This document shows positions 12,252 through 59,571 of a DNA stretch of 64,000 nt, piece by piece. The position numbers and the translations under genes were made by a program. Under the pieces are notes generated by a model. It worked only from the letters and a program-made list of their open reading frames with translations. It was not told the DNA's origin and did no database searches. The stretch is from Candidatus Amesbacteria bacterium RIFCSPLOWO2_01_FULL_48_25. GTDB lineage: Bacteria; Patescibacteriota; Microgenomatia; CAZETR01; Amesbacteraceae. Each line of letters opens with the position of its first letter. Positions within the stretch are counted from its first letter, which is position 1. The DNA lies in contig MEXN01000003.1 in the NCBI GenBank assembly GCA_001773695.1, forward strand, positions 25,547 to 89,546, given 5' to 3'.

Positions 12252-12271
12252 TCTGATATATTATACCTACA

Positions 12272-38455: not shown

Positions 38456-38504
38456 AATTACATGATACAGGCTGACGGTTTGATTTGCATTAGGCTTCCG
38501 GTAA

Positions 38505-39234: not shown

Positions 39235-39870
39235 GTGAAAATAGATATTTTGACACTGTTTCCGGAGATGTTTTCCGGGCCGTTTGACTATTCAATTCTT
39301 CGGCGAGCTCAGGACAAGCAGCTCGTGAAGATTGACATACATAATTTGCGGGATTGGGCGGCGGATAAGTATAAATCGGTCGATGATAGGCCGTACGGTG
39401 GAGGGGCGGGGATGATCCTGAAGGTGGATATTATCGACCGAGCGGTCGCAAGCCTCAAATCCCAGGCCTCAAATCCCAAAATAATATTGCTGGATGCAGG
39501 GGGAAAGAAATACACTCAGGAAAAGGCCGGAGAATTATCCCGGGGAGAACACTTAATCGTCATTTGTGGGCATTATGAGGGGGTGGACCATCGGGTACAT
39601 GAGCACGTTGCTGACGAGGTGATTTCTATAGGCGATTATGTGCTGTCCGGAGGAGAAGTCCCGGCTATGGTGATCGTGGACTCGGTAGTTAGATTATTAC
39701 CGGGAGCATTAGGGAATAAGAAATCCCTGGCCGAGGAATCACATAATAATGAGGAAATCGAATATCCTCAATATACCCGGCCGGAGGAGTATAAGGACTG
39801 GAAAGTGCCGGAAATTTTGCTGTCCGGGGATCACAAGAAAATTGAAGAGTGGAAGAAATTTAGGCAGTAA
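39235..39870 (+). CDS. trmD: tRNA (guanine37-N1)-methyltransferase TrmD
   Basis: 211 aa. MKIDILTLFPEMF...YGGGAGMILKVD...LICGHYEGVDHRV...GDYVLSGGE. This is the characteristic TrmD pattern. Confidence 0.9.
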   Translation: MKIDILTLFPEMFSGPFDYSILRRAQDKQLVKIDIHNLRDWAADKYKSVDDRPYGGGAGMILKVDIIDRAVASLKSQASNPKIILLDAGGKKYTQEKAGELSRGEHLIVICGHYEGVDHRVHEHVADEVISIGDYVLSGGEVPAMVIVDSVVRLLPGALGNKKSLAEESHNNEEIEYPQYTRPEEYKDWKVPEILLSGDHKKIEEWKKFRQ

Positions 39871-40732: not shown

Positions 40733-41279
40733 TTTTAGGCTGCCAGATATCTGTTAAGAGAGTTTGCGTGGAAATCTTAAAGTTATCTGAAGTGTCTGGG
40801 GAGCTGAGAAGATTTATTATAATCGAATTTTCTTCCAGGGCTTTCCAGCCCTTGAGGACAACAGGAGGGATTTTTATAAACAACGGGTTTTTACTGCTAG
40901 CGATAAATTGATTAACATGGCCGAAGGACCGGCTTTCTTTTCTCAAATCTATGAGGACTATTTGCATTTTGCCAGCCAGACAAACGAATTGGCTGAAAGT
41001 CTTTTCGTGCCAATGCCAACCTTTTGTGATGTCTTTATCTGTGAGGTTGTAGTAGATGTGCTCTGGCTTAAGTATGTTTTTGTCTTCCCATTTCAAGCTC
41101 CAAATTTCTGTTAGGTCCCCTCTCCCATCCGCAAGAGTTTTTAGTTTTTTTACATAGACACCTTGAATGGTGGGGTCTGACCAAACGGATTGGATCTGAA
41201 GTCGGATATCTTTGAATTTTTCGGGGTCAAAACTAGTAGTTTTTCCCATAGATTTTTTCATAAGCTTTGCGATATTCAC
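40722..41279 (-). CDS. rmlC: dTDP-4-dehydrorhamnose 3,5-epimerase (RmlC, cupin). The start is uncertain and may be at 41261 or 41249.
   Basis: About 175-185 aa. DGRGDLTEIW...KGWHWHEKTFSQFVCLAGKMQIVLIDLRKESRSFG is cupin-fold RmlC-like. It lies between rmlB and rmlD. Confidence 0.6.
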   Translation of the reverse strand: MNIAKLMKKSMGKTTSFDPEKFKDIRLQIQSVWSDPTIQGVYVKKLKTLADGRGDLTEIWSLKWEDKNILKPEHIYYNLTDKDITKGWHWHEKTFSQFVCLAGKMQIVLIDLRKESRSFGHVNQFIASSKNPLFIKIPPVVLKGWKALEENSIIINLLSSPDTSDNFKISTQTLLTDIWQPKSEW

Positions 41280-42249
41280 CGGATTTTATCTTCTTCCACC
41301 ACCGAGTATTTTTCATATACCACTCGACGGTGAGGCGGATCGACTGGTCTAGGGAATATTTGGGCTTCCAGCCTAACTTACCTATTTTAGTCCAGTCCAC
41401 GGCGTATTTACGATCGTGGCCGGGGCGATCTGTGACAAATTCCATCCAATCCCCAGGTATATCCATAACTTTGATAATTTTACTCAGGAGTTGAATATTG
41501 TTGATTTCCCGGTGATCAGAGCCGATCAAATACCTCTCGCCCGGTTTACCTTTTTTCAGGATAACGTCGATGGCCCGGCAATGATCGATCACATAAATCC
41601 AATCCCGAATGTTTTTGCCGGTGCCATATACGGGAACTTTTTTGCCCTCGAGAATGTTGGTGATGGCCAAGGGGACAAACTTCTCCGGATATTGGTATGG
41701 ACCGATATTGTTGGTGCAGTTAGATATCGTGGCCGGCAAGTGATGAGTGTGAAGATAGGCCATAATAAACATTTCGGCAGAGGCTTTGGAAGCGGCGTAT
41801 TCATTACTGGGGTTAAGTAAAGTCTCGGCCGTAAATTTGTGCTTGTCATTAATGGCCAAGTCCCCAAAAACTTCGTCTGTCGATATTTGGTGAAATCGCT
41901 TAACTTGGTACTTAAGACAGGCTTCGAGGAGGTTGCGGGTACCAATGATGTTGCTGTTTATAAATTCGTTAGGCTCGTATAAGGAGCGGTCGACGTGAGT
42001 CTGGGCGGCAAAATTGACAACCACATCTACCCCTTGCTTGAATATCGGTTCAATCTCATCATAGCGGCTGATGTCTGAGTGATAAAATTTGTATTTGGGG
42101 CTTTTCTCAATATCGCGGAGATTATCGAGGTTGCCGCTGTACTTGAGGGCGTCTAAATTGATGACTATGTCTTTGGGGTAATTATCCAGCCAATAGTGAA
42201 CAATGTTGCTGCCGATAAAGCCCGCGCCGCCGGTAATTAAGACTTTCAT
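41233..42249 (-). CDS. rmlB: dTDP-glucose 4,6-dehydratase (RmlB)
   Basis: 338 aa. MKVLITGGAGFIGSN...VINLDALKYSGNLDNL...ISTDEVFG...YAASKA...DHREINN...RPGHDRKYA. Confidence 0.85.
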   Translation of the reverse strand: MKVLITGGAGFIGSNIVHYWLDNYPKDIVINLDALKYSGNLDNLRDIEKSPKYKFYHSDISRYDEIEPIFKQGVDVVVNFAAQTHVDRSLYEPNEFINSNIIGTRNLLEACLKYQVKRFHQISTDEVFGDLAINDKHKFTAETLLNPSNEYAASKASAEMFIMAYLHTHHLPATISNCTNNIGPYQYPEKFVPLAITNILEGKKVPVYGTGKNIRDWIYVIDHCRAIDVILKKGKPGERYLIGSDHREINNIQLLSKIIKVMDIPGDWMEFVTDRPGHDRKYAVDWTKIGKLGWKPKYSLDQSIRLTVEWYMKNTRWWKKIKSGEYRKAYEKIYGKNY

Positions 42250-42977
42250 ACTTTGAGGCCTTTTTCTTTAGCCCAATATACATTGGCCGCCAGAAGACTG
42301 TCAAAAGTGCCAACATCATGCCAATAGCCCTTGAGCTCCTCCCACTTCATACTGCCGTCCCGAATGTAATAATTTTGAACATCGGTGATTTCTAGTTGTC
42401 CCCTTTTGGAGAGTTTAAGTTTGCGGGCCACGCTAAAACAGCGATGATCAAAAAGATAAAGTCCGACCGATGCGTATTGAGAGGGAGGGTGGACAGGTTT
42501 TTCGACAATGCCAACAAGTTTTTTAGGGTGGTTTTTATCGAATACCGGAACGCCGAAACGCTCGGGATCGGGGACTTTTTTGAGAAACATCACTGAACCT
42601 GTGGTAAATGAGGTTACAGACTTGGAAATATCGGCATCAGTAACATTGTCTCCCAGAATAAAGGTTATGGGTTTACCCTCGGCGAAATCTTCGGCGACCT
42701 TGAGGCCGTCTGCTAGGCCCCCGGTCGGATTATCTTGATACCCATACTCGAGATGATTAAGACCTAATTCCTTGCCATTTTTCAAAATGCTTATGAACTG
42801 TCCCGAATGGGGGCCGCTGACGACGATCATCGCCTCTCTTATCCCGGCCCTGACCAGCGTCCGGATGGGGTAATAGATCATGGGCTCGTCGTAGATGGGA
42901 AGGAGGTGTTTATTGGTAGCGTATGTGAGAGGATAAAGCCGGGTGCCCAGCCCACCAGCGAGAATTACTCCTTTCAT
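42246..42977 (-). CDS. rmlA: Glucose-1-phosphate thymidylyltransferase (RmlA, short form)
   Basis: 243 aa. MKGVILAGGLGTRLYPLTYATNKHLLPIYDEPMIYYPIRTLVRAGIREAMIV. ATGA overlaps at both ends. Confidence 0.8.
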   Translation of the reverse strand: MKGVILAGGLGTRLYPLTYATNKHLLPIYDEPMIYYPIRTLVRAGIREAMIVVSGPHSGQFISILKNGKELGLNHLEYGYQDNPTGGLADGLKVAEDFAEGKPITFILGDNVTDADISKSVTSFTTGSVMFLKKVPDPERFGVPVFDKNHPKKLVGIVEKPVHPPSQYASVGLYLFDHRCFSVARKLKLSKRGQLEITDVQNYYIRDGSMKWEELKGYWHDVGTFDSLLAANVYWAKEKGLKV

Positions 42978-46131: not shown

Positions 46132-47364
46132 TTAGTGGAGTATACTCTTCTTAAGCTGCAAAAGCAAGTATTTGAGTCTAAAGAGTATTCCTTCGTGGAC
46201 TTTTTTTACTATAATACGGTGTATTTGGTTTTCCGAGTAGTTGTGGTATTCAGTTGAGTAGTAGCCTGGCGCGGATATTAGGAGGGGATTGTTCTCTTCT
46301 AGATAGGCCAGCTGGAATCTGCCTTGAGAGTCTGTCTGAACGGTGCGAACAGTTGAGAATATTTGGGCTTTAGCCACCGGCTCGTCTAGAGCGTTGACAA
46401 TAATCCCGGAGATGGTTTTGGGAATGTAGTAGGAAGTCAACATACCTACAGCAGACCTGGATTTACCACTAGTGCTCCACAACTGGGTTGAACCACCAAC
46501 GCTGGTCCAATAATTGACGCCGATGACTGATTTTGTCAGACTAAGCCCTCTCAGAGCCGAATCCAGCCAGCCGGACTGCTGGATTTCGGTCATATTCCCA
46601 TGTAAGTCTTTGATGGGTACCCCAAATTCCCCTAAAATAATTTGGGCGCCTGTTTTGGAAGATAAGTCAGAAAGATCGTTAACTAGTTTTTGGGGAGAGG
46701 AAACGTAGTGGTCAACGGCGATAATCCCCCCCAGTCCGGCTGATGTGGACGAATCCATAATGAGCTTGGCTACGTCTAGGTTGTGAGAGTTGAGCACCAA
46801 AACTTGTTTGTTGATTTTAGTAAATGCGGTAGAGGCTTTTGAATATTGCTGGAGAAGAAAGCCTCTGTAACCAGATACATCTCCGGTGTGCCTGGGGTCG
46901 CCAATTCCGCCGTTCTCACACTCCGGACAGGGAGAGAAAACATCCCCGTCGGCAAACATTTTTGGATGGCTGGTTATAAATTTTTCCGTTTGAATTAATA
47001 GGTCTTCTCTGGATATGGAGGGATAGTTGAACCAACGTTCCCAGCCGGACCAATTGCCACGAAACCATACCCCGAGGTTGTATTTGCGAGCGGTGGATAC
47101 CCAGCGGGATAGGAAAGGGTAAAATTCTTCGTCATAAGGGGTGGCAATGGCCACGTAGGTGGCGCCGGTAGCGGCAATGTTTTTGATTTGCTGGTCTATG
47201 ACTGCATCGAATTTGTTATCGTTTAACTTCTCCCGGGCTAGATCACGAGAATACTTCATGGTATCCACCGATTGAATTTGCCAAAGAGTGGTCCGGGGAG
47301 CGGCATGTATTGTCTGGACAGAGATGGCTAACGCTAACGGCAGTAGAAATATTGCGGCCATCAT
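46132..47364 (-). CDS. Secreted glycoside-hydrolase-like protein (TIM-barrel-like, GEFG motif) with a C-terminal carboxypeptidase-regulatory-like beta-sandwich
   Basis: 410 aa. Signal peptide. ILGEFGVP and PECENGG are possible catalytic motifs. The C-terminal GIIVNALDEPVAKAQIFS...TDSQGRFQL is CarboxypepD_reg-like. Family assignment is uncertain. Confidence 0.4.
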   Translation of the reverse strand: MMAAIFLLPLALAISVQTIHAAPRTTLWQIQSVDTMKYSRDLAREKLNDNKFDAVIDQQIKNIAATGATYVAIATPYDEEFYPFLSRWVSTARKYNLGVWFRGNWSGWERWFNYPSISREDLLIQTEKFITSHPKMFADGDVFSPCPECENGGIGDPRHTGDVSGYRGFLLQQYSKASTAFTKINKQVLVLNSHNLDVAKLIMDSSTSAGLGGIIAVDHYVSSPQKLVNDLSDLSSKTGAQIILGEFGVPIKDLHGNMTEIQQSGWLDSALRGLSLTKSVIGVNYWTSVGGSTQLWSTSGKSRSAVGMLTSYYIPKTISGIIVNALDEPVAKAQIFSTVRTVQTDSQGRFQLAYLEENNPLLISAPGYYSTEYHNYSENQIHRIIVKKVHEGILFRLKYLLLQLKKSILH

Positions 47365-48947
47365 TTTTGATTTTTAAATACGGGTTGGTATTGGAGCTGG
47401 GAGAGATAATCGGATCTTATTTCGTAGACGTCGGCGAAGGGTAAATGGAATAATAGGTCATAGCTGGAAAAACCCTGGGTGCGACTGACGAACTTCCAAG
47501 TAAGATCATTGTCATCGTAGGTGCGCATAATAATCCACCTGGCCCACCGTTCCGGGGCAGTTGTCGCCGCTTCCCAATATGCCCCGGTGCCTTCATGGAT
47601 AAACCGTTTCATGGGTAGGCCCGATGAGAAGATAATGGCGTCGTGCGAGGCTGCCGAAATGAGGATAAATCCGGGCTGGTTTTTGGCATATGTATTTAAA
47701 AACCCGGCTACCTCAGAAACGTTTTTTTGGCTGGCGCCCACCCGGGCATCGTCTATGGTCACTGCGTCCTGGTTGGCCATGGCAAAGAACAGGACGAAGG
47801 CGGTCAGGCCCACGACGGTCCAGCGAAGGTGTCCGGCCTTGTGGACTAAAAAGCCCAAGAAGATAGCGATGGAGGGCATAAGCATGACTCCGTAGCGGAC
47901 ATTAAACCAGGTGTTTCCAGACAAACCTTGGACAAAAAGAACCGAAAAGCCTAAATATAGTGCCAGTATATTAAAGGCCAATGGGGCCAGGAGGGTGAGG
48001 CTGGCAAGCTTGGTGGATAAAGATAGTGCTTTATCCTTAAGTAAAATTATTGCCCCTATTAGACCAAGGATGGCAGGGAGAGTATAAGAGTTGTACATTA
48101 GGGCATAGAAATAGATTTTGGTCGATAGGCCTAGGTTACCTTTGGTAGCTAAAACGCCGGCAGCAGATAATTGAGCTTGTTGAGCGCGAGCGGAAAAGGG
48201 GCCGAAAGCAAAATACAAAGCATCTTTGAAAATCAATTGATTCCATAAAAACCAAAGAGCAATCCCCAATCCCCCCAGAGTGCAAAATATAATGGTCATG
48301 CCTTCGGCGGTAGAGTAATTTTTCTTTTTCCAAGTGTGGAGAGCGACGAGAATTGTCGAGAACAAAAGCAAGAACCAGCCGTCGTAGCGGATAAGAGTGG
48401 ACAACATAATCCAGAAGGCGGACTGAATGAGCTCCAAGAGGTTATCCGTCTGGTGCCAAACCAGAAGCTTGTAACAGCCGGCGGTCATGGTGGCTAAAAG
48501 CATCAGTTCGGTCATGGCCGTGGATTGAAGATATAAAACATTTAAGTTAACGGCAAAAACAGCGACTCCCACCAAGCGACCAAGCGAGCCGACTTTTAAT
48601 CTTTCTAGAAACTTGTAAATCAAAATGCCGGTGGCCACAAAGGCGGCCATAGACTGAATGGCCCCGGAGAGGCCCGAGTGCCACATGAAGTCGTTGCCTA
48701 TCGTGGGAATCATGAGGGCGTGGGTCAGAGGCAGCCAGACGGAACCGAGCTGAGCTAATCCCGGCTTGAGCCCTTCCACCACGCGCCGACCAATATCTAG
48801 GTGCGACCTAGCGTCGTTATAGGCGAGTCCCAGGCCGTTTTGGAGAAACCGCAAATAATAGACTACCGATAAAACTACTAAACTTGTAAAAATCAGCCTG
48901 AGGAAAAGACGGGAAGAGTTAGTGACGTTCATAAGCTGTGTGTCCAA
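47361..48947 (-). CDS. Polytopic membrane protein with C-terminal soluble domain (putative GT-C-type transferase)
   Basis: 528 aa. YNDARSHLDIGRRV...VWLPLTHAL, about 12 TM helices, then a ~130-aa soluble tail. Confidence 0.45.
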   Translation of the reverse strand: MDTQLMNVTNSSRLFLRLIFTSLVVLSVVYYLRFLQNGLGLAYNDARSHLDIGRRVVEGLKPGLAQLGSVWLPLTHALMIPTIGNDFMWHSGLSGAIQSMAAFVATGILIYKFLERLKVGSLGRLVGVAVFAVNLNVLYLQSTAMTELMLLATMTAGCYKLLVWHQTDNLLELIQSAFWIMLSTLIRYDGWFLLLFSTILVALHTWKKKNYSTAEGMTIIFCTLGGLGIALWFLWNQLIFKDALYFAFGPFSARAQQAQLSAAGVLATKGNLGLSTKIYFYALMYNSYTLPAILGLIGAIILLKDKALSLSTKLASLTLLAPLAFNILALYLGFSVLFVQGLSGNTWFNVRYGVMLMPSIAIFLGFLVHKAGHLRWTVVGLTAFVLFFAMANQDAVTIDDARVGASQKNVSEVAGFLNTYAKNQPGFILISAASHDAIIFSSGLPMKRFIHEGTGAYWEAATTAPERWARWIIMRTYDDNDLTWKFVSRTQGFSSYDLLFHLPFADVYEIRSDYLSQLQYQPVFKNQK

Positions 48948-50442
48948 CTAAAAGACCCAGACCGCTGATAACGATTGGGAACAAAATCAGATGATAGTAT
49001 TGCCAGCTATTGAAGTATTTAGAACCAAAAGCCTTAAAGGCGAATGATTTGAGACGACCGGCTGATAAATGATCAAAATTTCTGCCAACGGTATATTTTT
49101 GTTGCATGCCGGAAATTTTCTCCAAGGCTAAAATTTCTACTTGCGGGGGATTGGCACTGGAAGTGAGGGCACCTGCTAAGTTGACGGCAACGGAATAGAC
49201 AAACAAGGCAAAGAAGAGGGCTGAAACCAATGGTTTGGGGCGGGATTTGGAAAGACCCACCCCAATAAAAATGGCTGATAGAGCATATGAAGGGATTAGG
49301 TAGCGGGACCCGAAACCCCACCCCCCCCACGGGTCTCCCCATAAAGAATATAGAACCAGATTTATGCCCAAAACACTTATAAGTAAAGGTAATAATGGGT
49401 GGTGAGAGCGAAAGAGATAAGAAGCGCCAAAGATTGCTAGGATTACGATAGGGGCGAAATATATAATCCCACGATCCGGACTAATAAAGTGGATGTAAAG
49501 TCCATTTAGTAGATTACGAGATTTAAAAAAGTTGACAGCAGATTTTTTTTGAATTTCCGGACGGACAAATCTCTCTAAGTCCTGCTGTGTATTTTGGGCG
49601 GCTTGGGGCACGCCCGGACGACCTTGAGCATCGATAGCTCTGACACCGGAGATGGTACCGGCGAGTTGAAAGGGGTTGCCATATGATTTGAGGTTAAAAT
49701 AACCGAGCAGTACTAAAGGAGGAACTACGGCCAGCACTGATAATAGTTTAATTGGACTTTTTTTGACATTGAATGTTTTAACCAAGGCGAAAAGTGCGAT
49801 AGGGACAAACATAACTAAGTTGGGATAGTCAACCGTGAAGGAAAAGGCCATGAAAAACCACACCAATGCCAGTCTTTTAAAATTGGGGGGTTGGGTCAAA
49901 AGATAAATACTAGTCAGAATAAGAAGAGTAGACGCGTGGTGTTGGTAGAGACTGACAGAGTAGGCAAAGGCAGGAGTAGCAAATAGAAATGTCAGTCCGG
50001 CTAGGCTGCCTGTGAAGAGTGAAGCGCCAAGTTTGCGGGAGATGACCCCAACGAGCAAGAAGTTGAGAAACGCAAACAAGGAAACGGTGGCATAGGATAA
50101 CAAGGGGCCGGAACCAATTAGTTTTCCTAACAAGTATCCCGGAGCGATCAGAAACGATAGCCCTGGTGCAAACAGAGAAACGTATTTGCCGTCTTTGTAA
50201 CCTAAGTCGGGAACGGCAAATCTGGCCAGAGGAATTGAATAGTGAAAGGAGCCATCTTCGATCAGGGAAAAGGTGACAGAGAATCGCCCTCTTTCAACAG
50301 ACAACTCGAATGGCCCACCTTCCGACCAACGAGGCGTGTTGAGTTCGCTGGCCGTGGGGTTACCCAAAAGCCCTCTGACTGAGCCGGCCAAAACTATGAC
50401 GGCAATAATAGAAACTGTGATAGTTAGAAATTTACCTTTCAT
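48919..50442 (-). CDS. Polytopic membrane protein (putative GT-C-type transferase)
   Basis: Start trimmed to MKGKFLTITVSIIAVIVLAGS at 50442, giving an ATGA overlap with the GT4 stop. The ORF-track N-terminal extension is rejected. Contains a G8 tract encoding WGGW. Confidence 0.45.
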   Translation of the reverse strand: MKGKFLTITVSIIAVIVLAGSVRGLLGNPTASELNTPRWSEGGPFELSVERGRFSVTFSLIEDGSFHYSIPLARFAVPDLGYKDGKYVSLFAPGLSFLIAPGYLLGKLIGSGPLLSYATVSLFAFLNFLLVGVISRKLGASLFTGSLAGLTFLFATPAFAYSVSLYQHHASTLLILTSIYLLTQPPNFKRLALVWFFMAFSFTVDYPNLVMFVPIALFALVKTFNVKKSPIKLLSVLAVVPPLVLLGYFNLKSYGNPFQLAGTISGVRAIDAQGRPGVPQAAQNTQQDLERFVRPEIQKKSAVNFFKSRNLLNGLYIHFISPDRGIIYFAPIVILAIFGASYLFRSHHPLLPLLISVLGINLVLYSLWGDPWGGWGFGSRYLIPSYALSAIFIGVGLSKSRPKPLVSALFFALFVYSVAVNLAGALTSSANPPQVEILALEKISGMQQKYTVGRNFDHLSAGRLKSFAFKAFGSKYFNSWQYYHLILFPIVISGLGLLVGHTAYERH

Positions 50443-51608
50443 GAGCCGAGGGCTGTTGTATACATTTTTTCTACCTGGAGGGAGATGTTTTGCCAAGAAT
50501 GGCCTCGGGTAAAATCTGTATTGCGCTTGCGCATTGCCAATATCTGCCTGGCATGAGAGGAATCGAGAATGTACTTGACAGCATCGGCCACTGATACCTC
50601 GTCGTATTCGGGGACACAAAAGCCATTTATCTTGTCTTTTATCAACTCTTCCAAGGCAGTGCCTCGGGATACGATACAAACACAGCCCTGACTCATCGAT
50701 TCGTGAATGACGTTACAATAACTTTCCCAAAGAGCCATGTGGACATTGACTACAGAATGTCTAAGCCAATAGTATTTATTTACACCAGAAATGACTCCTA
50801 AGAAATGCACCCGATCGAATAGGCCAAGTTGGGATATTAAGAGATCTAGAGACTTTTTATATTCGGGGTCGGTTACAGGGCCGATGATTACAAATTGGAT
50901 GTCTTGAGGTAAGTGTTTTAGCGCTTTAATGCCGGTGGCTTGATTTTTGATAGGGTGGATGCGACCGATCTGGATAAGATACCGGCCTAGTTTTCGGACT
51001 TGGTCTGTGGTTACTTGATTGGCTAGTTTTTCGATTTGGGTATAGACCTCTCTCTCCAAGCCGTTGTGAATAATGTGGATAATGTCTGGTCGCATCCCGT
51101 GTTTGATGCTTTCGACTGCCTCCCAATCCGAGACGGAACGCAGCCCGTCTACTGCCGCATTAATAAGATGCACTCCTAAAATTTCTTGATAGGTTTTTTT
51201 GATGAAACGAGAAAGGGGTGAAAAAGTTCTCCACTCGGGAGTGAAACCGCCGTGAGGGGTAAGGAAAACTTTGGGAGAACTCATTCCAAGAGTACGACGG
51301 ATGAGGACTATTATTAGGAGCCATGAGTGGGGAAAGATATTAAAATTGTGAAGTGCAATGGCAGGAGTATGTGCCCAGTCTATGCGGGGAACAAAGCCGT
51401 ACCAACGCCAAGGATAACGATGGATATTCATGCCGTCGAGATGATCGATTACAGGAAGGGAGTTTTTGGCCTCTGGCATGTCAGTCGAGGTGTGGATTGT
51501 GACATCCCAGCCGTGGGAAACCATGTGCTTATAGACGTTTCTGACATTGATTTCTATTCCTGCTGCCAGGGGATAAAAGTACTTGACGATGACATCTATT
51601 TTTTTCAT
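50439..51608 (-). CDS. GT4 (group 1) glycosyltransferase
   Basis: Start trimmed to MKKIDVIVKYFYPLAAGIEIN at 51608, with an ATGA overlap. The C-terminal ...ESYCNVIHESMSQGCVCIV...ELI is a GT4 E(x7)E-type region. Confidence 0.7.
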   Translation of the reverse strand: MKKIDVIVKYFYPLAAGIEINVRNVYKHMVSHGWDVTIHTSTDMPEAKNSLPVIDHLDGMNIHRYPWRWYGFVPRIDWAHTPAIALHNFNIFPHSWLLIIVLIRRTLGMSSPKVFLTPHGGFTPEWRTFSPLSRFIKKTYQEILGVHLINAAVDGLRSVSDWEAVESIKHGMRPDIIHIIHNGLEREVYTQIEKLANQVTTDQVRKLGRYLIQIGRIHPIKNQATGIKALKHLPQDIQFVIIGPVTDPEYKKSLDLLISQLGLFDRVHFLGVISGVNKYYWLRHSVVNVHMALWESYCNVIHESMSQGCVCIVSRGTALEELIKDKINGFCVPEYDEVSVADAVKYILDSSHARQILAMRKRNTDFTRGHSWQNISLQVEKMYTTALGS

Positions 51609-52276
51609 TTGATTGCGACCAGGGTAACTATACATGGGTATCTGACATCTGTAATCTCCAGATCCGCGATATTTACGTCTTGTTGGGACATGCCTACCCA
51701 AAAGTACTGGCCGGCTAGGACGTTGCCGTAAGTTTTTATATCTATGTTTTTTGACCTGAAATACTTTCCGAATATGTATTTGACAGAATAAGGAGTGAAA
51801 CGCCAATAGACTTTTTCTTTTAAGATCGGTCCCAGACAGGATGAGGTAAAAAGCAAGACTCCTCCCGGCTTGAGGATGCGATGGCATTCACATGCGGCCG
51901 CCTGGACATCGTCAATTAGACCCAAGACGTGAGTCAGAATAAGGCAATCGTAAGTATTGGATTTTACGGTAGTTAAATGCTTGAGGTCGCCATGAATAGT
52001 GGCGAGTTTATTTTTTGGATTGATGTCTAGCACGTCACTTTTAGTAACTTTTAAGCCAAATTTGATAGTATAAAATGAATCAGTGACTTCAAGGCATCTG
52101 CCAGTTATAAGTTTTTTATTAGCTGTGAGAAATTTTTCGATCCAATACCTATCTATTGGGTTTCCCCGATCGAAGCCAAATTTGTGGCTTAACGGCTTGG
52201 CGCTTGGCCTGGCTAACCAATATAGTCCGGCTGGGCGGAAAAGACGCATGATAAGAGCACGAATTTTTGAAATCAT
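51605..52276 (-). CDS. Class I SAM-dependent methyltransferase
   Basis: 223 aa. CLEVTDSFY...VLDINP...YDCLILTHVLGLIDD...LKPGGVLLF. Confidence 0.55.
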   Translation of the reverse strand: MISKIRALIMRLFRPAGLYWLARPSAKPLSHKFGFDRGNPIDRYWIEKFLTANKKLITGRCLEVTDSFYTIKFGLKVTKSDVLDINPKNKLATIHGDLKHLTTVKSNTYDCLILTHVLGLIDDVQAAACECHRILKPGGVLLFTSSCLGPILKEKVYWRFTPYSVKYIFGKYFRSKNIDIKTYGNVLAGQYFWVGMSQQDVNIADLEITDVRYPCIVTLVAIK

Positions 52277-53934
52277 TTTGTTAAACTCTTGGAACTAACC
52301 ACCATGTCCCAACGACTACTGACATTTGTTTGAGGGAGTAACTGCGATCTCAAAAAGGTAAATGAGACTAGCATTAAGTATAGAACGGCATAAATGGGAG
52401 ATTTAATAAATTCCCAAAATCCGGAAAAGAAATAAAGATACCACGGAGGATTGAAGTTGTTGTTCGTTATTTTTCGTCCGGAATTAAAGTAGCGCCAACT
52501 TTGTTTCCAGTGATCGGCCAGGGTTTTTGGTAAACGGTAGTAGATTCTAGTACTGGAAACAAATGTGTACTTAAAACCATGCAACTTGGCAAAAACATAA
52601 GTAAATTTGTCCTCCCCCCCCGAGTTGGGAAAATGAATGGCTTTGGCCAGACGCCGTGATAGGGCCCTAACTGGGCCGTGGCAAGACAGCGCGTTGTCAC
52701 CACCATTGAATGACTCGAAAACCCGGTTTTTTCCAGCCATGCCAACACTTAGAGTTTTCTCTAGCCAATTGGTGGGGGGAAGATGACGAATCGGGCAGGA
52801 AACCAGATCGGCTGATTCATTTACGAAGGGACGGGTAATTTGGGAAAGAAAGAAGGGATCGAAAACTCTGATATCGGCGTCCATTAATAGTGTCACATCG
52901 GAATCGGATCGAGAAAGCAAAACATTGTTGGCGTGGGTCCGACCGTGGCGCTTTTGGGAAGAGATTAAGTCTATCCGAGGATCAGAAAATCCGCGAACTA
53001 TTTTGTCCGTGTCGTCCGTGCTACCATCCGAATAGACTAGAATTTTTTGTAATTTGTAATGGGGGGAAGGGAAATGATTGAGTAAGTCATCGAGAAATTT
53101 AGCAATGTTTTGGGATTCGTTGTGAGCCGGAACTGTGACGGTTACTGATAGTTGTTTAACTGGAGAAGAATGATAAAAAGATTCCAATTTGGGGATATTT
53201 GATAAATTGCCTTTGAATATTGCTTTGACCTGTGAGGTATATTGGGATATCGAATTGATTTTCTGTGAATGATTTAAAGAGACGACCAATTTTTTAGGAT
53301 TTAGAAGTTGAACAAATTTGGGATCAACTGAAAATTTGAATATATAAGGAAAATCTTCCCAGTAATAAACATTTGTAAATGTTTGGGCGCATAAGTCGCG
53401 GACGATCACATGATCTACGTGATTACCCACTGCCATTGGGCAAAAAATCAAAGAACTAGGAGCGTTAATAATATTTAATAGCCTTTTTCTTACTTGAATT
53501 AGAGTCTCCAAATCTTTTTCGGAAACTTGTCCACGAGAAATATGCCATCTATAAGTTGGGTAGATTTTTTCACGCCACAGAGCATCGGTGAATCCCAAAT
53601 TAACTACTTTGACATGCGGGAAGAAGGAAAAGGCCCGTTTGTCTTCTTGTATGCGGACTTTTTGCAGCACGATTGGATCTTTAAAACCACTCTGGCGAAG
53701 GAATGCGAGTTGAGATAACGATTGAGGCCCGGCGTGTGTTTTAGTGAAGATGTTTATGACAGTTACCGGAACTTTATCAGAGAGATATGAGATTAGTCCC
53801 CCGGCTGAAAATAATGCATCGTCGAGATGGGGGGAAATAAAATAGACAGGAGTGTTGTTTTTGATGATATTTTTGATTGTCTTGGTCATACTGGACTGAG
53901 AGAAATTCCCTTCTTTAGCAAGTTGGTGTACCAA
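52273..53934 (-). CDS. Bifunctional fusion: N-terminal PIG-L/LmbE-family de-N-acetylase plus C-terminal family 2 glycosyltransferase
   Basis: 553 aa. The N-terminal VYFISPHLDDALFSAGGLISYL...MAVGNHVDHVIV is a PIG-L signature. The C-terminal VTVTVPAHNESQNI...ILVYSDGSTDDT...LLMDADIRV is GT2. Contains a G8 tract encoding SGGE. Confidence 0.65.
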   Translation of the reverse strand: MVHQLAKEGNFSQSSMTKTIKNIIKNNTPVYFISPHLDDALFSAGGLISYLSDKVPVTVINIFTKTHAGPQSLSQLAFLRQSGFKDPIVLQKVRIQEDKRAFSFFPHVKVVNLGFTDALWREKIYPTYRWHISRGQVSEKDLETLIQVRKRLLNIINAPSSLIFCPMAVGNHVDHVIVRDLCAQTFTNVYYWEDFPYIFKFSVDPKFVQLLNPKKLVVSLNHSQKINSISQYTSQVKAIFKGNLSNIPKLESFYHSSPVKQLSVTVTVPAHNESQNIAKFLDDLLNHFPSPHYKLQKILVYSDGSTDDTDKIVRGFSDPRIDLISSQKRHGRTHANNVLLSRSDSDVTLLMDADIRVFDPFFLSQITRPFVNESADLVSCPIRHLPPTNWLEKTLSVGMAGKNRVFESFNGGDNALSCHGPVRALSRRLAKAIHFPNSGGEDKFTYVFAKLHGFKYTFVSSTRIYYRLPKTLADHWKQSWRYFNSGRKITNNNFNPPWYLYFFSGFWEFIKSPIYAVLYLMLVSFTFLRSQLLPQTNVSSRWDMVVSSKSLTK

Positions 53935-54875
53935 ATGACGTTTTCGCGGGGAGCGTTCCAGGTGAGGTTGTGAATCTCACAGTTGATCATGAGACTACTG
54001 ACCCTCTTGGTGTAATTGGGGTCTTTTTTAGATTTGGCTGAAATACGAGAAAAAAGTCTGTTTCTCAGACCGTGGCTGATACCCATAGTAGAAATAGAGG
54101 TGACAGTTTCAAACTCCGGATACGTATAAGAGACTTGTTCCACATCGAGGATATGGATCTTTTTACCGCGGAGATAGATATTTCTGAAATTCAGATCACC
54201 ATGAACAAGCGTGGATTGATAATAACCTGTGAAAGCCGAAATGTTTTTGACAAATACCCAAATACCGCGAAGAATATCCAAGAATAAATTGGGGTGCTCG
54301 AAAATTGCGGCGATGGTGATTAGGGGCAGTATGCATAAATATTCCCCGATGAGTTTATGGCGGAACTGGGATACTTCAAGTCTGGTCATGTGGCGACCCA
54401 AAAATCTTAAATAGCCAACTACTTGATTGTGTATTTGGATCTGACGACGTGAATCATGGACTTTCGCCAGTGGTTTACCCAAAATAAATTTTGTTCCTAA
54501 AATTAATTTATGTTTTTCGTGGCGGGAGAAAGCCACGTTAGGTATGGAAAGTGCTTTGTACTTTGGTGGGAGAATATGGGCGACCCGGTCGTGGACATTG
54601 TTTAAGATTTGGATTGAGGTAAGCTGATGAAGCAGGTCATAATAATGGATGTCTTTTCTCTTGCCAGTCCAAATCTTCATAACAACCCGCAACCCTAACG
54701 GGTCTTGATATAGGCCCACTTTGAATGGAAAATGTTTTTCCGGTTGCAAATCACGAATTAACTTGAAGCGATCAATATGTTGGGGCATCTGCCTGGGAAC
54801 GTCCCGAAACCTTTTTTCGAATAGGCTGTTGTATAAATAACTAAAAATGATATTGACAAGCTTACTGATATTCAT
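53886..54875 (-). CDS. Protein-kinase-like fold phosphotransferase (APH/ChoK/Kdo-kinase-like)
   Basis: 329 aa. Catalytic-loop-like LVHGDLNFRNIYL (HGDxxxxN), then IHILDVEQVSY, which is DxE/DFG-like. Confidence 0.5.
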   Translation of the reverse strand: MNISKLVNIIFSYLYNSLFEKRFRDVPRQMPQHIDRFKLIRDLQPEKHFPFKVGLYQDPLGLRVVMKIWTGKRKDIHYYDLLHQLTSIQILNNVHDRVAHILPPKYKALSIPNVAFSRHEKHKLILGTKFILGKPLAKVHDSRRQIQIHNQVVGYLRFLGRHMTRLEVSQFRHKLIGEYLCILPLITIAAIFEHPNLFLDILRGIWVFVKNISAFTGYYQSTLVHGDLNFRNIYLRGKKIHILDVEQVSYTYPEFETVTSISTMGISHGLRNRLFSRISAKSKKDPNYTKRVSSLMINCEIHNLTWNAPRENVIWYTNLLKKGISLSPV

Positions 54876-57800
54876 ATGCTGGTTGATGGCTTAGGGGAAC
54901 ATCAATTTCGGGAACTAGGAGAAGTTTGACTGCCTCTAAAAAAGACCGTGATTGTGATTCCCAGGAGAATTGGCGAGACCAGGCTTGAGAATTTTTGGAA
55001 AAATATTTGAGGATCGAGGGGCGGTGAATCAGGGATTTAATCGTATTTGCCAAGGTATATGGATCAAGGGGGGGAACCAGGATACCGGTTTGGTTGTGGC
55101 GAACCGAATCGCGAAGACCAATTACATCCGAGGCGATGGCGGGAGTGCCACAAGCGTTGGCTTCGATGACGGTAATCCCCCACCCTTCGAACGAACTGGG
55201 CTGAAGCATGGCCCAAGATTGGGACAACAACTGGACTTTTTCTTTCTCCGTCACCCGGCCGAGAAAATAAACATTATTACTTAAGTTTAAATCTTCGGCG
55301 AGGTGCCGCAATTCTTTTATCCCCTCACCGACTCCGGCAATGTTCAGCCGGGCTTTGGGATGATCACGAACCACTTGAGAGAAAGCCCGAATAGCCACGT
55401 CTATATTTTTGTACGGGCGGATCCGGCCCACATAAACAAACGATGGATTTTTTGTTTTTGGCGCTTTGCGGATGTACTCCCTAAGAGTAATCCCGGGATT
55501 AACTATGGTGATATCTTCCGGACGGCTTAAACCGATGCGGACGATGTCGTTTTTGGAGGATTCGGAGACAGTAATAATCTTTTGGTTATGGTAGACAAGG
55601 GGCATGAGACGGGATTCCAAAGCCATGGCAAACTGAGCCACGGGAAAGGGCAGACGGCCCTGGAAAATTATTTTATCCTGATGGATGTGATGGATGAGGA
55701 GAATTTTGGGAATACGGGCGAATAGTGGAGTAAAAAATGGGATACCGTTTTCAGAGTCGATAACAATGTCAAATCGGTTCCGAAGACGCAACAAATAATA
55801 TATTACAGCCCAGAAATAGACTGTGTAAAAACCGCCATGGCGAATGATTTTCACTCCGTCGATTGTTTCCTTGCGGGGACAATTGCCGTCATTGCCGCAA
55901 AAAATGGTGACCGTATGGCCCTGGGCAGCCCAACGCTTGCCAAGCTCGTGAATATAGACCTCGGCGCCGCCGGCCCATTTATGGCGGATGTCCCGCCAGT
56001 TGAAAATTAGAATCCGGAGAGAATCCGATTTGGATGGGGAAAGTTCGCGAGGAAAAAAGCGGATCAATAAATCCCATAGATCCCTGATGTTGTTGGTCAC
56101 CGACCAGGAAAACTGGTAATAGAAATGGAGCATGAGAAAACTGCCCAGGTAAACTAAACTTAAAACCAGCATGACAGTGACTAAATCCGCAAGACTTGAA
56201 TGGAAAAAGTAGACTAAAACCGGTTGGAGGGAAGCTAAAATGAAGCCTAAAATGGGAAAGACATATTGGCGACGGGCTTGGTGATAATTGACGATACTAC
56301 CAGACAGGGTGAAGTTGACCATGGCCAGGCAGTACCAGGTTAACAAGGGGATGACGGAAATGATCTTCGGGCCGAAAAGAAGAGGAGCGAAAATTGACCC
56401 CAATGGCCCCAAAGCGACAAAGCCCATGATACTGGTAACGCTATTGCCCAGCAACAGGCGGTAAAACAGCGGCTTGGGATTGGCACCTTCCCCCTCGGCC
56501 CGACTGACTACGGGGATGATGAATGGATCAAATAAAGAGCCTAGAAAATAAACAATTTTACCGGCTAACGATATCAGAACATATTGACCGGCGATAGCGG
56601 GAGGTAAATAGATTTTGGCTAAGATTACGTCCAAACTCAAAAACGCCAGAGATGAAAGCTTGATAAGAATCGAGGTGCTAAAAAACCGAAAGGGGAAATG
56701 GGGTGCTGATTGCAGGGTCTTTGTGGCAACTATTTGGGGTTTGATAGCTCTGACTGCCAACCAACAGACTGCGAGAGCGGCGACTAATGAGAGAGGGTGA
56801 GAAGCGTATATATATTGGGGCCAACCCAAGCGGACAAAAAAGACGGCGAAAGCAAACTTGGATACAGATTCGACAGTGACCATAGCAGCAAGTACCGCAA
56901 ACCGGTGATGGCCAGCTAGGAATCCCCGATTCGTGGCCACTAAGGCAGTCGCTAACCATAACGGGGTGATAAGGAAAAACGGAGTCGTATTGCCGTTTGC
57001 TTGGAAAACCCGGGACATCCACGGAATGACCGCGATCCAGACGGCTGTCACTCCTAGCGAAATATACAAAACCCGACTTTTGATAAAGTTCCAAAAGTGG
57101 TTTACATAACGGTTCTTTTGACCCAAAAGAAATGCTACCCGGTGCGAGAGAGTTTTGGAGAGAGCGGTGGTAGGGATTTGCACCAAATAGGCAATACTAC
57201 CCATTAGGCCCACCAGACTGAATTCTTCTATGGAAATGGCCCGACCCAAATATATGTTGTAGAGAAAATTGAAAAAATTGCTGAGCATGGTAGAGGCTAC
57301 CAGAAGCGTGCCTCCCTTAAGTAAGGGTTGGGGTAGAACTCCCAGCCGTCCAAATTGATGAGAAACAAAGTTCCTCAGGCTTGAGAGCCAGGACTGACGG
57401 GCTTCTTTGGAAACTTCGAACAAATGGAGACCGTGGTGGGTTTTTTCCCAGTAATAGGGACGGAATACCAACTGCCAGAATGCCTTGAAAGCTGCTAGGC
57501 TTATAAACAGCCAGTAGAGGGGGACGGCAAATACGTATTTGACCAATTCCCACCGGCCGCGTTTGGCACAGCCAATCATGTAGTAATAGAGGTAGAGAAA
57601 ATTGCCGAAAATAGCGGAGAAGGCAGCCAGATAAAAGATGGCGGCGGGATAGAGGGACTCGATAGTGGGTCCGACATATTTATAAAGAGCAAAATAAGAA
57701 ATTGTCGCCAGCCACAAGAAGGGGTTAATAAGCATAAATGCGATCCGGCCGCCGACGATAAGCTGAAAAATTAGAGCGTGCCAACCGTGGGACTTTAAAA

Positions 57801-59571
57801 ACCTTAAGGGATGGCGATTATGAACAAAAAAGGTTTGCAGGTAGCCCTTGATCCAGCGGGAGCGCTGACGTAACCAGTTACCAAGATCGCTGTTGGCTTC
57901 CTCCAGAGTTGTGGAGTCAATAATGGCGGTGGTGTAGCCTTCTTTAAACAGTCTGGCGCCCAGATCGCAGTCCTCAGTAACATTGAAGGCGTCCCAGCCG
58001 TGGAGACTTTTTAAAATGGTGGTTCGGAAATGATTTGAAGTCCCGCCTAATGGAATAGTGGTCCCCAGTGACTGAAGGCCGGGGAGGACAACGTCGAACC
58101 AGAGGGAATACTCGGTAGTGAATAATCGGGTCAAAAGGTTGTGGTGGGGATTGTAGTAATTGAGTTTGGCTTGGAGGCACGCGGTTTGGGGAGGGACGCG
58201 GTGAGTAAAAGTGAAATACGCCTTTTTGAGTTGGTCCGGCTCGGGACGGTCCTCCGCATCATAGATGACGATGTATTCTCCTGTGGCCCGGGATAGGCCA
58301 TAATTGCAGGCTTTGGGTTTGGTCTTGGGATTCGAATGAGGGACAACGACGACGTGGAAGTAGTCCGGGAGAGCCAAGTTTTTAGCTGCTTCCCGCGTTT
58401 GGTGATCGTCTTCTTCCAGAAGCAGAAGAACTTCCAGTTTATCTTTGGGCCAGTCCAGCTGAGAAATGTTTTCTACAAACTGAGGCAGGACCCGGGCCTC
58501 GTGATAGAGGGGGCAAAGAATCGTGTAAACAGGGAGTTTATCAGTTGCCCAGTTTTGCAGTTGAGCCACTGAAATGGAGATTTCAGGGGGTGACTTGAGA
58601 CTTCTGTAAATTAAAATGAAGTTGAAAACAACGTCGGCAAAATAAATGGCTGAGAGCAGGCCAACAAGAGTGATGGCTGTAGACTGCGGCCAGAGGAGAA
58701 AGCTGACGGACATTAGAGCGAGAGCGCCCAGAAGAGCTAGTTTTTGAAGTCGATGTAGGGTCACTATGGCGGAGTAGTGATGCGGCAGGGTGGAGTGAGT
58801 AACATAGCCGCGACGACGGTAGATCATACCGGCTCCGGCCATTGAACTGTTTGAGGCTGGTGGCAGGGAATAGATTTTTCCGGGCGAAAATCGCAATCTT
58901 ATGGCGGTGGTACTAATTTCTCTGGCGGCTTGAAAAAATTCTGACCGGGCTTGAGATGATCCGGACTCCCTGGGTGTAAAGGTGATGGGAACGACCCCTA
59001 TTGAGTAACCCAATTCACGGGCTGTATGCAGAAGCGGCATGTCTATCGCCCATGCTCTGACGTCACTTTCGGATAGATGGACGGCAACTTCCCGCCGGAA
59101 AAGTTTTAACCCCGATTGGACATCGCAGTTCAGCCCCAGAAGTAGTCGGCCAAAGATAAAGGTGTTTAGGTGGGAACCAATTTTACGTAACAGTGAGGAA
59201 TGGGACTTGGTCCGGTTGGCGACCACGACACCATGGACGGCAAGCTGGGGATACATCTGAGGGATGGCTTCAGGAGGATATTCCAAGTCCCCGTCAATCA
59301 TGGCCATAAAAGGAGCGGAACTTGCACGAATGCCTTCGATAATGGAAAAGGCCTTCCCACGCATCCCTCTTTTCACAACCAATCTTATGGGGTACTTTTG
59401 GGAAAGTCGGGTGATAAGTTCGCGGGTGTCATCTGTAGAGTGGTCGTCGACAAAAATTATTGAGTATGGAATCTTGGCTTTTTGCAGGCTGGAATTTATG
59501 CGGCGGGTAAGTTCAACTAGACTGGCCTCTTCGTTATAGACGGGGACGATGATATCTAATCTTCTGGACAT
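54862..59571 (-). CDS. Giant multidomain glycosyltransferase (1569 aa): GT2 (DPM1-like), TM helices, processive GT2 (QxxRW), TM bundle with MOP/Wzx-like domain, then GT4
   Basis: A single uninterrupted ORF. Residues 1-230 are DPM1-like (IIVPVYNEEASL..IIFVDDHSTDDT..AMIDGDLEYPP). About 340-620 is synthase-like GT2 (YDAEDRPEPDQL...TEDCDLGARL...QRSRWIKGYLQ). The central region has more than 15 TM helices and includes GRAISIEEFSLVGLMGSIAYL, which is a Wzx-like loop. The C-terminal ~400 aa is GT4 (ILIFNWRDIRHKWAGGAEVYIHEL...QPSSFEGWGITVIEANACGTPAIASD). Confidence 0.75.
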   Translation of the reverse strand: MSRRLDIIVPVYNEEASLVELTRRINSSLQKAKIPYSIIFVDDHSTDDTRELITRLSQKYPIRLVVKRGMRGKAFSIIEGIRASSAPFMAMIDGDLEYPPEAIPQMYPQLAVHGVVVANRTKSHSSLLRKIGSHLNTFIFGRLLLGLNCDVQSGLKLFRREVAVHLSESDVRAWAIDMPLLHTARELGYSIGVVPITFTPRESGSSQARSEFFQAAREISTTAIRLRFSPGKIYSLPPASNSSMAGAGMIYRRRGYVTHSTLPHHYSAIVTLHRLQKLALLGALALMSVSFLLWPQSTAITLVGLLSAIYFADVVFNFILIYRSLKSPPEISISVAQLQNWATDKLPVYTILCPLYHEARVLPQFVENISQLDWPKDKLEVLLLLEEDDHQTREAAKNLALPDYFHVVVVPHSNPKTKPKACNYGLSRATGEYIVIYDAEDRPEPDQLKKAYFTFTHRVPPQTACLQAKLNYYNPHHNLLTRLFTTEYSLWFDVVLPGLQSLGTTIPLGGTSNHFRTTILKSLHGWDAFNVTEDCDLGARLFKEGYTTAIIDSTTLEEANSDLGNWLRQRSRWIKGYLQTFFVHNRHPLRFLKSHGWHALIFQLIVGGRIAFMLINPFLWLATISYFALYKYVGPTIESLYPAAIFYLAAFSAIFGNFLYLYYYMIGCAKRGRWELVKYVFAVPLYWLFISLAAFKAFWQLVFRPYYWEKTHHGLHLFEVSKEARQSWLSSLRNFVSHQFGRLGVLPQPLLKGGTLLVASTMLSNFFNFLYNIYLGRAISIEEFSLVGLMGSIAYLVQIPTTALSKTLSHRVAFLLGQKNRYVNHFWNFIKSRVLYISLGVTAVWIAVIPWMSRVFQANGNTTPFFLITPLWLATALVATNRGFLAGHHRFAVLAAMVTVESVSKFAFAVFFVRLGWPQYIYASHPLSLVAALAVCWLAVRAIKPQIVATKTLQSAPHFPFRFFSTSILIKLSSLAFLSLDVILAKIYLPPAIAGQYVLISLAGKIVYFLGSLFDPFIIPVVSRAEGEGANPKPLFYRLLLGNSVTSIMGFVALGPLGSIFAPLLFGPKIISVIPLLTWYCLAMVNFTLSGSIVNYHQARRQYVFPILGFILASLQPVLVYFFHSSLADLVTVMLVLSLVYLGSFLMLHFYYQFSWSVTNNIRDLWDLLIRFFPRELSPSKSDSLRILIFNWRDIRHKWAGGAEVYIHELGKRWAAQGHTVTIFCGNDGNCPRKETIDGVKIIRHGGFYTVYFWAVIYYLLRLRNRFDIVIDSENGIPFFTPLFARIPKILLIHHIHQDKIIFQGRLPFPVAQFAMALESRLMPLVYHNQKIITVSESSKNDIVRIGLSRPEDITIVNPGITLREYIRKAPKTKNPSFVYVGRIRPYKNIDVAIRAFSQVVRDHPKARLNIAGVGEGIKELRHLAEDLNLSNNVYFLGRVTEKEKVQLLSQSWAMLQPSSFEGWGITVIEANACGTPAIASDVIGLRDSVRHNQTGILVPPLDPYTLANTIKSLIHRPSILKYFSKNSQAWSRQFSWESQSRSFLEAVKLLLVPEIDVPLSHQPAYEYQ

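Follow-up and report, generated by a model that had tools for sequence, protein, structure and literature searches.

A predicted PIG-L de-N-acetylase fused to a synthase-like GT2 glycosyltransferase in a variable segment of a Patescibacteria surface-glycan locus

Which step of glycan synthesis could be carried out by a single polypeptide that combines a sugar de-N-acetylase with a glycosyltransferase, and in which pathway? This question is raised by a gene of Candidatus Amesbacteria bacterium RIFCSPLOWO2_01_FULL_48_25 (assembly GCA_001773695.1, contig MEXN01000003.1), located in a stretch of 64,000 nucleotides (positions 25,547-89,546 of the forward strand) that was analysed as a whole and is referred to here as the window. 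The Candidate Phyla Radiation (CPR)/Patescibacteria are ultra-small bacteria, mostly uncultured and attached to host cells, and their cell-surface chemistry is almost unknown. The encoded protein carries a PIG-L/LmbE de-N-acetylase domain followed by a family 2 glycosyltransferase (GT2) domain. Judged by its sequence and gene context, it appears to be one version of a module that recurs in Patescibacteria, consisting of a family 4 glycosyltransferase (GT4), PIG-L and a synthase-like GT2, in a variable 'tailoring' segment of the locus.

The maximal open reading frame (ORF) on the minus strand is unbroken from 52273 to 53934 and would encode 553 residues from a TTG codon at 53934, the gene end given by the initial annotation. 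The true start is almost certainly not this upstream TTG but the ATG at 53889, as it overlaps the stop codon of the upstream gene in an ATGA sequence and the N-termini of all eight aligned homologues match there. Residues are numbered in the resulting 538-residue frame, with the exception of the Pfam envelopes, which are given in the 553-residue frame. The gene and its parts are as follows:

52273..53889, minus strand: PIG-L-GT2 fusion gene, 538 residues plus stop, ATG start at 53889
53155..53841, minus strand: PIG-L/LmbE de-N-acetylase domain, residues 17-245
53815-53835, minus strand: SPHLDDA motif of the PIG-L domain, residues 19-25, followed by SAGG
53410-53421, minus strand: HVDH motif of the PIG-L domain, residues 157-160
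52480..53148, minus strand: GT2 (GT-A) catalytic domain, residues 248-470
Residues 287-293: SDGSTDD motif of the GT2 domain
52873-52881, minus strand: DAD motif of the GT2 domain, residues 337-339
52609-52620, minus strand: GGED motif of the GT2 domain, residues 424-427
52489-52503, minus strand: QSWRY motif of the GT2 domain, residues 463-467
52330..52479, minus strand: C-terminal membrane anchor, an aromatic amphipathic helix and one hydrophobic transmembrane helix, residues ~478-517
52276..52329, minus strand: conserved C-terminal tail after the membrane helix, residues 521-538, from the alignment

In agreement with the initial annotation, the PIG-L signature (SPHLDDA at 19-25 with SAGG, HVDH at 157-160) is present in the N-terminal half and the DxD motif of a GT2 (DAD at 337-339) in the C-terminal half. 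A domain scan of the kind it had proposed gave matches above the gathering thresholds for both: PIG-L (PF02585) at residues 32-184 with 40.6 bits (gathering 28.2, E 4.3e-10) and Glycos_transf_2 (PF00535) at residues 265-431 with 66 bits (gathering 23.3, E 5e-18). The GT2 half is further matched by Glyco_tranf_2_3 (44.4 bits) and Glyco_trans_2_3 (PF13632, 34.7 bits), both above gathering (>27).

The N-terminal half has the Rossmann-like alpha/beta fold of solved PIG-L/LmbE members, and the residues predicted to bind Zn or act in catalysis (H21, D23, D24, H157, D159 and H160) are invariant in nine fusion proteins, the window protein and eight homologues. A profile of nine homologues matches Dbv21 and Orf2* at E values of 1e-20 to 1e-18. 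The domain thus appears to be a Zn-dependent PIG-L/LmbE de-N-acetylase (carbohydrate esterase family CE14), closest to the teicoplanin/A40926 N-acetylglucosamine (GlcNAc)-pseudoaglycone deacetylases. Orf2* and Dbv21 (PDB 2x9l, 3dfi) are stand-alone soluble enzymes of antibiotic biosynthesis in actinomycetes with 20-25% identity, whereas the domain in the window is fused to a membrane-anchored GT2 within an envelope-glycan operon.

The C-terminal half has a GT-A fold and is predicted to be an inverting GT2 of the cellulose/hyaluronan-synthase-like class, to which it is structurally most similar, with the D, DxD, ED and QxxR[W/Y/F] motifs. Residues D288, D292 and D339 are invariant across the alignment of the nine fusion proteins, and the GGED site (E/D-D) is kept in the window protein and six of the eight aligned homologues, P0008 and P0010 being divergent. 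The sequence at the QxxRW site is QSWRY in the window and Q-x-x-R-F in P0002-P0006 and is lost in P0007-P0010; the equivalence of this site is by spacing and fold likeness only. The ED and QxxR motifs are spaced by 36 residues, as are TED and QRGRW in BcsA, and their layout agrees with the synthase-like class. A PDB sequence search with the C-terminal 209 residues alone, made to align GED/QSWRY with TED/QxxRW, gave no meaningful matches.

Hydropathy analysis detected a single hydrophobic segment (residues 494-513) and no N-terminal signal, and the confident AlphaFold2 model, built from a 17-sequence alignment (predicted local distance difference test score 87, predicted template-modelling score 0.77), places helices at 483-496 and 498-517. 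As there is one transmembrane helix and no N-terminal signal, both catalytic domains are predicted to face the cytoplasm, held by one C-terminal membrane anchor. The tail behind it contains the motif W-x4-S-[ST]-K, in which S532 and K534 are invariant in nine sequences. Since one helix leaves no export channel, the protein resembles a minimal member like PcManGT of Pyrobaculum calidifontis (PDB 6yv7), and a role as processive polymer synthase, which would need a multi-helix channel, was rejected. Identity to PcManGT and to the class I hyaluronan and cellulose synthases is only 10-19%, and compared with these synthases the window protein has one transmembrane helix without a translocation channel, and the tryptophan of QxxRW is a tyrosine. 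A polyprenyl-phosphate GT2 of the ArnC/GtrB/DPMS type was disfavoured by lower structural-similarity scores (ArnC 17.3, DPMS 17.1, GtrB 16.7) and by the presence of such a domain in the neighbouring 1569-residue protein described below. No NCBIfam model matched the fusion protein at equivalog level; the best, far below its cutoff, was PgaC/IcaA. The BshA and MshA models of NCBIfam reached only 46-55 bits against cutoffs of 274-463, and MshB and BshB were not among the sequence matches at E<0.01.

A gene of this architecture could in principle be an artefact, with adjacent PIG-L and GT2 genes merged by a frameshift or a lost stop and no bifunctional protein made. The two halves are indeed separate, adjacent or overlapping genes in five genomes (L015, L020, L033, L034, L037), where each has its own start codon. 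However, the frame in the window is continuous, and no start codon is found in the linker (HSSPVKQ, about 8 residues). A BLASTP search of 5.8 billion proteins returned nine proteins with the PIG-L plus GT2 architecture (P0002-P0010, 31-40% identity), and at least eight independent homologues align over the full length (31-42% identity) and share the short linker. The identical junction is encoded by P0001, a 100% identical fragment from a separately assembled 1.3-kb contig of the Joint Genome Institute (JGI). A separate exhaustive profile search of 1.84 billion representatives found both halves in ~45 clusters among the best 150 representative proteins. In addition, AlphaFold2 predicts well-structured strands across the junction. 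On the strength of the frame, the shared linker, the P0001 contig, the lack of a linker start and the ~45 clusters, the artefact was rejected as extremely improbable, and the sequences point to a genuine single gene.

The search for the same fusion in other genomes, also proposed by the initial annotation, thus yielded uninterrupted equivalents, nearly all of them in Patescibacteria; among species-representative genomes the carriers belong to Amesbacteria, Daviesbacteria, Woesebacteria, Saccharibacteria and Parcubacteria. Stand-alone PIG-L (~260 residues) and stand-alone GT2 (~300 residues) relatives far outnumber the fusions, and the fused and the adjacent but separate forms look like a classic fusion/fission pair. 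The domains occur as PIG-L-GT2, GT2-PIG-L, GT4-PIG-L-GT2, GT2-GT4-PIG-L and PIG-L-GT2-GT4. Some members are already named 'glycosyltransferase / LmbE family deacetylase' in the automatic annotation of JGI, and no relevant description was found in the literature on PIG-L/LmbE-glycosyltransferase fusions and on this CPR locus. A related case is seen in an uncultured Saccharibacteria metagenome-assembled genome (L029, CAYXYP010000004.1), where positions 9977-13282 hold a continuous ORF of 1101 residues, an apparent fusion of GT2 and PIG-L with a polytopic GT-C-like protein. Unless it results from misassembly, this ORF physically joins cytoplasmic tailoring enzymes to a GT-C membrane enzyme.

To place the fusion protein in a pathway, its neighbours in the window have to be considered:

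54862..59571, minus strand: multi-domain protein, 1569 residues, with a DPMS/ArnC-like GT2, a BcsA/PgaC-like GT2, a flippase-like region and a GT4
53886..54875, minus strand: kinase-like protein, 329 residues, with the catalytic-loop motif HGDLNFRN, translationally coupled to the fusion gene
51605..52276, minus strand: class I S-adenosylmethionine (SAM)-dependent methyltransferase, 223 residues, Methyltransf_11 39.9 bits, ATGA overlap with the stop of the fusion gene
50439..51608, minus strand: Agl16-like GT4 glycosyltransferase, ~389 residues, ATG at 51608, Glycos_transf_1 85 bits, Agl16 172 bits
48919..50442, minus strand: polytopic GT-C-like membrane protein, ~507 residues, ATG at 50442, LA_3751/3752 family 57.6 bits, ~10 hydrophobic segments
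47361..48932, minus strand: GT-C-fold glycosyltransferase, 523 residues, highly conserved, no Pfam family, invariant loop motif YNDARSHLDIGRRVVEGLKPG
46132..47364, minus strand: secreted or anchored protein, 410 residues, containing a CarboxypepD_reg-like domain; end of the conserved core as far as examined
39860-42977 (minus strand), 39235-39870 (plus strand), 37319-38668 (minus strand): deoxythymidine diphosphate (dTDP)-rhamnose genes rmlA, rmlB, rmlC and rmlD in a row

The kinase-like, fusion, methyltransferase, GT4 and GT-C-like genes are chained by four-base ATGA start/stop overlaps (53886-53889, 52273-52276, 51605-51608, 50439-50442), and a further one (47361-47364) links the 523-residue GT-C gene to the secreted-protein gene. 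For the GT4 and the GT-C-like gene the maximal ORFs extend to 51887 and 50679, beyond the likely starts at 51608 and 50442. The operon with a kinase-like gene and methyltransferases proposed by the initial annotation is retained, as a tight one, with the correction that only one adjacent SAM methyltransferase was confirmed, not several. The term 'kinase-like' rests on a sub-threshold RIO1 match (20.6 bits, threshold 22), the HGDLNFRN loop and a distant homology (20% identity, E 1e-7) to the APH domain that is fused to PIG-L in P0015. Orthologues of the methyltransferase (48-60% identical) adjoin GT4 and PIG-L genes in L001, L006, L007, L009, L029, L034, L082 and L085. The GT4 of the window is the orthologue of the GT4 domain that relatives carry fused to PIG-L-GT2, with 40% identity (E 2e-73) to this domain in P0005; GT4-PIG-L-GT2 ORFs of 972 and 975 residues are found in L006 and L007. 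The GT-C-like protein of ~507 residues has an orthologue in L001 with a weak PMT_2 match.

In the 1569-residue protein a DPMS/ArnC-like GT2 (residues 2-211) and a BcsA/PgaC-like GT2 (347-624) are followed by a polytopic region, which has ~10 helices and weakly matches Polysacc_synt (flippase), and by a GT4 (1201-1545); the PDB matches of the protein are 5mlz, 9bhc and 9fmv. It is present in nearly every related CPR locus, its second GT2 domain being 57-72% identical across phyla, and appears to be the core synthase for a CPR-wide envelope polymer that has not been described. The rml genes adjoin trmD and a GT2-GtrA/DPMS-TM fusion in the window, and in L001, L002, L025, L028, L043 and L055 this glycan locus likewise has Rml, CAP-domain and TrmD genes at its flanks. 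The rml genes point to a rhamnose-containing polysaccharide. Scans of the whole window for transfer RNAs and with Rfam gave no matches. Further away, positions 1-35108 hold on both strands at least ten ORFs of ~480-555 residues. Ten of these were scanned, of which several gave weak PMT_2, PMT or PTPS_related (GT-C-like) matches and four had no Pfam match; the region appears to be an unusually dense array of putative extracytoplasmic glycosyltransferases.

The locus was compared in two samples: 50 genome loci picked via a PIG-L sequence motif and searched by tblastn with the window proteins, and 80 metagenome loci fetched via the conserved GT-C protein, so that the bias of selecting for PIG-L was removed. 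The same layout is seen across these ~130 loci. In the genome loci the conserved core consists of the large multi-domain protein, the GT-C-like protein, the 523-residue GT-C protein (up to 73% identical) and the secreted protein. Between these core genes lies a variable middle of PIG-L, GT4s, synthase-like GT2 paralogues, kinase-like genes and the methyltransferase, with changing orders and fusions. A GT4 lies directly upstream of PIG-L, or is fused to it, in ~24 of the 50 genome loci, and the middle region of three of them (L012, L028, L032) is made of GT4 and PIG-L only. PIG-L is present in 11 of the 80 loci of the PIG-L-independent sample. The middle is fully covered in 31 of these 80 loci (~27 unique), four of which have a co-oriented PIG-L; in all four it comes after a P0011-type GT4 (49-53% identity) and precedes a GT2, APH kinase or Acetyltransf_6 domain. 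Synthase-like GT2 paralogues are found in every locus, whether PIG-L is present or absent.

The partners of the PIG-L subfamily show a similar pattern, with the GT4 on the N-terminal side and a GT2, an APH kinase, an Acetyltransf_6 or a CsaB-like pyruvyltransferase on the C-terminal side. One relative has PIG-L joined to a CsaB-like polysaccharide pyruvyltransferase (129 bits); the substrates of CsaB are lipid-linked precursors of wall polymers. Fusions of PIG-L with Acetyltransf_6 (FemAB/CelD-like) were observed in P0014, P0018, P0020, P0022, P0208, P0210, P0217 and P0243 and in loci L010, L017, L106 and L132. Their repeated occurrence suggests that the freed amine may be re-acylated in these lineages. 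Two of these proteins (P0210 and P0243, ~1140 residues) have an extra C-terminal region of ~570 residues without a Pfam match.

In the nearest relatives of the window by the GT-C gene (L054 and L055, 82% identity) PIG-L stands alone and is encoded on the opposite strand, which indicates fast turnover and rearrangement of the middle region. Stand-alone PIG-L genes opposite to the operon strand, just upstream of the GT-C-like gene, lie at 1763-2470 (minus strand) in L054, 3469-4194 (minus strand) in L055 and 7617-8327 (minus strand) in L103, and the same placement is seen in L104 (724-1434, minus strand) and L088 (6158-6718, minus strand).

Building on the domain identity, catalytic motifs, predicted topology, operon coupling, fusion/fission pattern and synteny described above, we infer the substrates, sugar identities and order of steps as follows. 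PIG-L would be an optional tailoring step at the cytoplasmic face of the membrane, acting on a lipid-linked envelope-glycan intermediate, and the downstream or fused enzyme would modify the same intermediate, a reading which we favour with moderate confidence. A lipid-linked glycan on the inner membrane face would carry an N-acetylhexosamine (HexNAc), probably GlcNAc. The PIG-L domain would take off the acetyl group and leave a free amine, after which this intermediate would receive a beta-linked sugar from the fused GT2. Further decoration may come from the kinase-like protein and the methyltransferase; once flipped, the product would be built into the surface glycan by the GT-C enzymes. As the enzyme that installs the HexNAc, a GT4 of the operon is most likely, by analogy, because a GT4 has this role in every characterised pair of a glycosyltransferase and PIG-L. 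No characterised member of the PIG-L family is known to act on a nucleotide sugar; their substrates are GlcNAc glycosides or amide conjugates, on which they act once glycosyl transfer has taken place.

Such pairs are PIG-A/PIG-L of glycosylphosphatidylinositol (GPI) synthesis, MshA/MshB (mycothiol), BshA/BshB (bacillithiol) and BtrM/BtrD (aminoglycosides), in which the glycosyltransferase installs GlcNAc and a PIG-L-family Zn enzyme deacetylates it. A GT4 is likewise the most constant neighbour or fusion partner of the CPR PIG-L family. The known pairs, however, consist of two separate proteins with a GT4 as the partner of PIG-L, and they use phosphatidylinositol, inositol phosphate, malate or 2-deoxystreptamine as acceptors, whereas in the window the fused partner is a GT2 in a surface-glycan locus; the fusion of PIG-L to a synthase-like GT2 is what is new here. 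Of the precedents cited by the initial annotation, PIG-A/PIG-L, MshA/MshB and BshA/BshB pair PIG-L with a GT4 rather than a GT2, and ArnD lies outside the PIG-L family. As to the product, a free-amine hexosamine on a membrane- or lipid-linked glycan is sensible. The small-molecule acceptor that was also considered is unlikely because of the membrane anchor and of the flippase domain, two GT-C enzymes and rmlABCD in the locus. A small-molecule thiol pathway of the mycothiol/bacillithiol type was rejected, given the lack of equivalog-level matches, the membrane-anchored protein and the envelope-glycan operon.

Several observations weigh against the favoured assignment of steps. The tryptophan of QxxRW is replaced by Tyr or Phe, and the ED and QxxR motifs are not kept in the distant fusion subgroup P0007-P0010. 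The Agl16-like GT4 of the window is also found in loci without PIG-L. As this GT4 is not bound to PIG-L and the window has no P0011-type GT4, the fused GT2 could be the HexNAc installer in the subtype of the window. Synthase-like GT2s (HAS, NodC, PgaC, chitin synthases) often use uridine diphosphate (UDP)-GlcNAc, which fits the step order of the initial annotation. Finally, all three cyclic orders of GT4, PIG-L and GT2 occur, as well as GT2-PIG-L, so that domain order does not fix reaction order; reading the one from the other was abandoned for this reason.

The order of the initial annotation, in which the fused GT2 moves GlcNAc or another HexNAc from a UDP-sugar to a lipid carrier or a lipid-linked acceptor and PIG-L then deacetylates the same residue, is possible but in our view rather unlikely. 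The linker of ~8 residues and the fusion having arisen in both orders argue for consecutive or tightly coupled steps; structurally, the GT2 falls into one class with HAS, NodC and PgaC, in which use of UDP-GlcNAc is common. Moreover, the window lacks a P0011-type GT4 and the downstream GT-C enzymes could take a lipid-phosphate-sugar donor. By analogy to ArnC/ArnD, LgmA/LgmC, PpgS or NodC/NodB, one polypeptide would then, as a tentative outcome, yield a glucosamine (GlcN)-lipid or GlcN-glycan. In ArnC/ArnD/ArnT, Bordetella LgmA/C/B, Francisella FlmF2/NaxD/FlmK and mycobacterial PpgS/Rv3779 cationic amino sugars are added to the envelope by a GT2 followed by a cytoplasmic de-N-acyl step, flipping and GT-C transfer, and the operon in the window also has GT-C enzymes and an ArnC/DPMS-like GT2 domain. 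NodC/NodB/NodA, PgaC/PgaB and IcaA/IcaB likewise combine a synthase-class GT2 with GlcNAc de-N-acetylation, and in Nod-factor synthesis the freed amine is subsequently N-acylated; in these systems, however, the deacetylases belong to family CE4, PgaB and IcaB are extracytoplasmic, and the synthases are processive and multi-span. The DPMS/ArnC-like GT2 already present in the 1569-residue neighbour argues against this order, as do the loci L012, L028 and L032, which have PIG-L with only a GT4 between the core genes. PIG-L also follows a GT4 in four of four co-oriented cases of the PIG-L-independent sample, with GT2 paralogues in all loci regardless, and the slot after PIG-L can be filled by enzymes that do not install GlcNAc (kinase, acyltransferase, pyruvyltransferase).

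Quite improbable, by comparison, is a GPI-like pathway, in which a membrane phospholipid or an inositol lipid would receive GlcNAc from a GT4, be converted to a GlcN-lipid by PIG-L and be extended by the fused GT2. It is suggested by the presence in the locus of every early GPI enzyme class (GT4, PIG-L, DPMS-like GT2, flippase-like region, GT-C enzymes) and by the recurring order with the GT4 upstream and PIG-L downstream. After flipping, GT-C enzymes fed by the DPMS-like GT2 would build a lipoglycan, in parallel to PIG-A, PIG-L and then PIG-M/V/B supplied by DPM1. The GlcN-glycolipid might then, with a similarly small chance, serve as an anchor for lipoglycan assembly or for tethering surface molecules of CPR bacteria, a counterpart of early GPI assembly in eukaryotes and archaea; in individual lineages, the fusions with a kinase, acyltransferase or pyruvyltransferase would edit the freed amine or hydroxyls next to it. 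The same enzyme classes, however, make ordinary wall polysaccharides, O-antigen-like glycans and protein glycans, and the PIG-L of the window has its nearest relatives in the teicoplanin deacetylases rather than in eukaryotic PIG-L or MshB. Genes specific to inositol or phospholipids were not found, and the rml genes suggest a rhamnose-containing polysaccharide. The PIG-L step is optional in the PIG-L-independent sample, being present in 11 of the 80 loci, and therefore fits a decoration and not the core of an anchor.

The fusion joins two common and well-understood enzyme families without a new principle and is plausible rather than surprising to a specialist; of greater interest, arguably, is the conserved locus around it, with a middle that varies. 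The fusion protein nevertheless provides a compact, expressible target for a first biochemical test of the pathway, and its gene marks a variable, exchangeable tailoring module in a surface-glycan locus that is conserved across CPR/Patescibacteria. A deacetylase, a GT4, a synthase-like GT2, a kinase and a methyltransferase are linked by the fusion and fission patterns, from which a surface sugar is predicted whose amino group is either free or modified again. This group would alter the charge of the cell surface and could plausibly affect host attachment and phage recognition.

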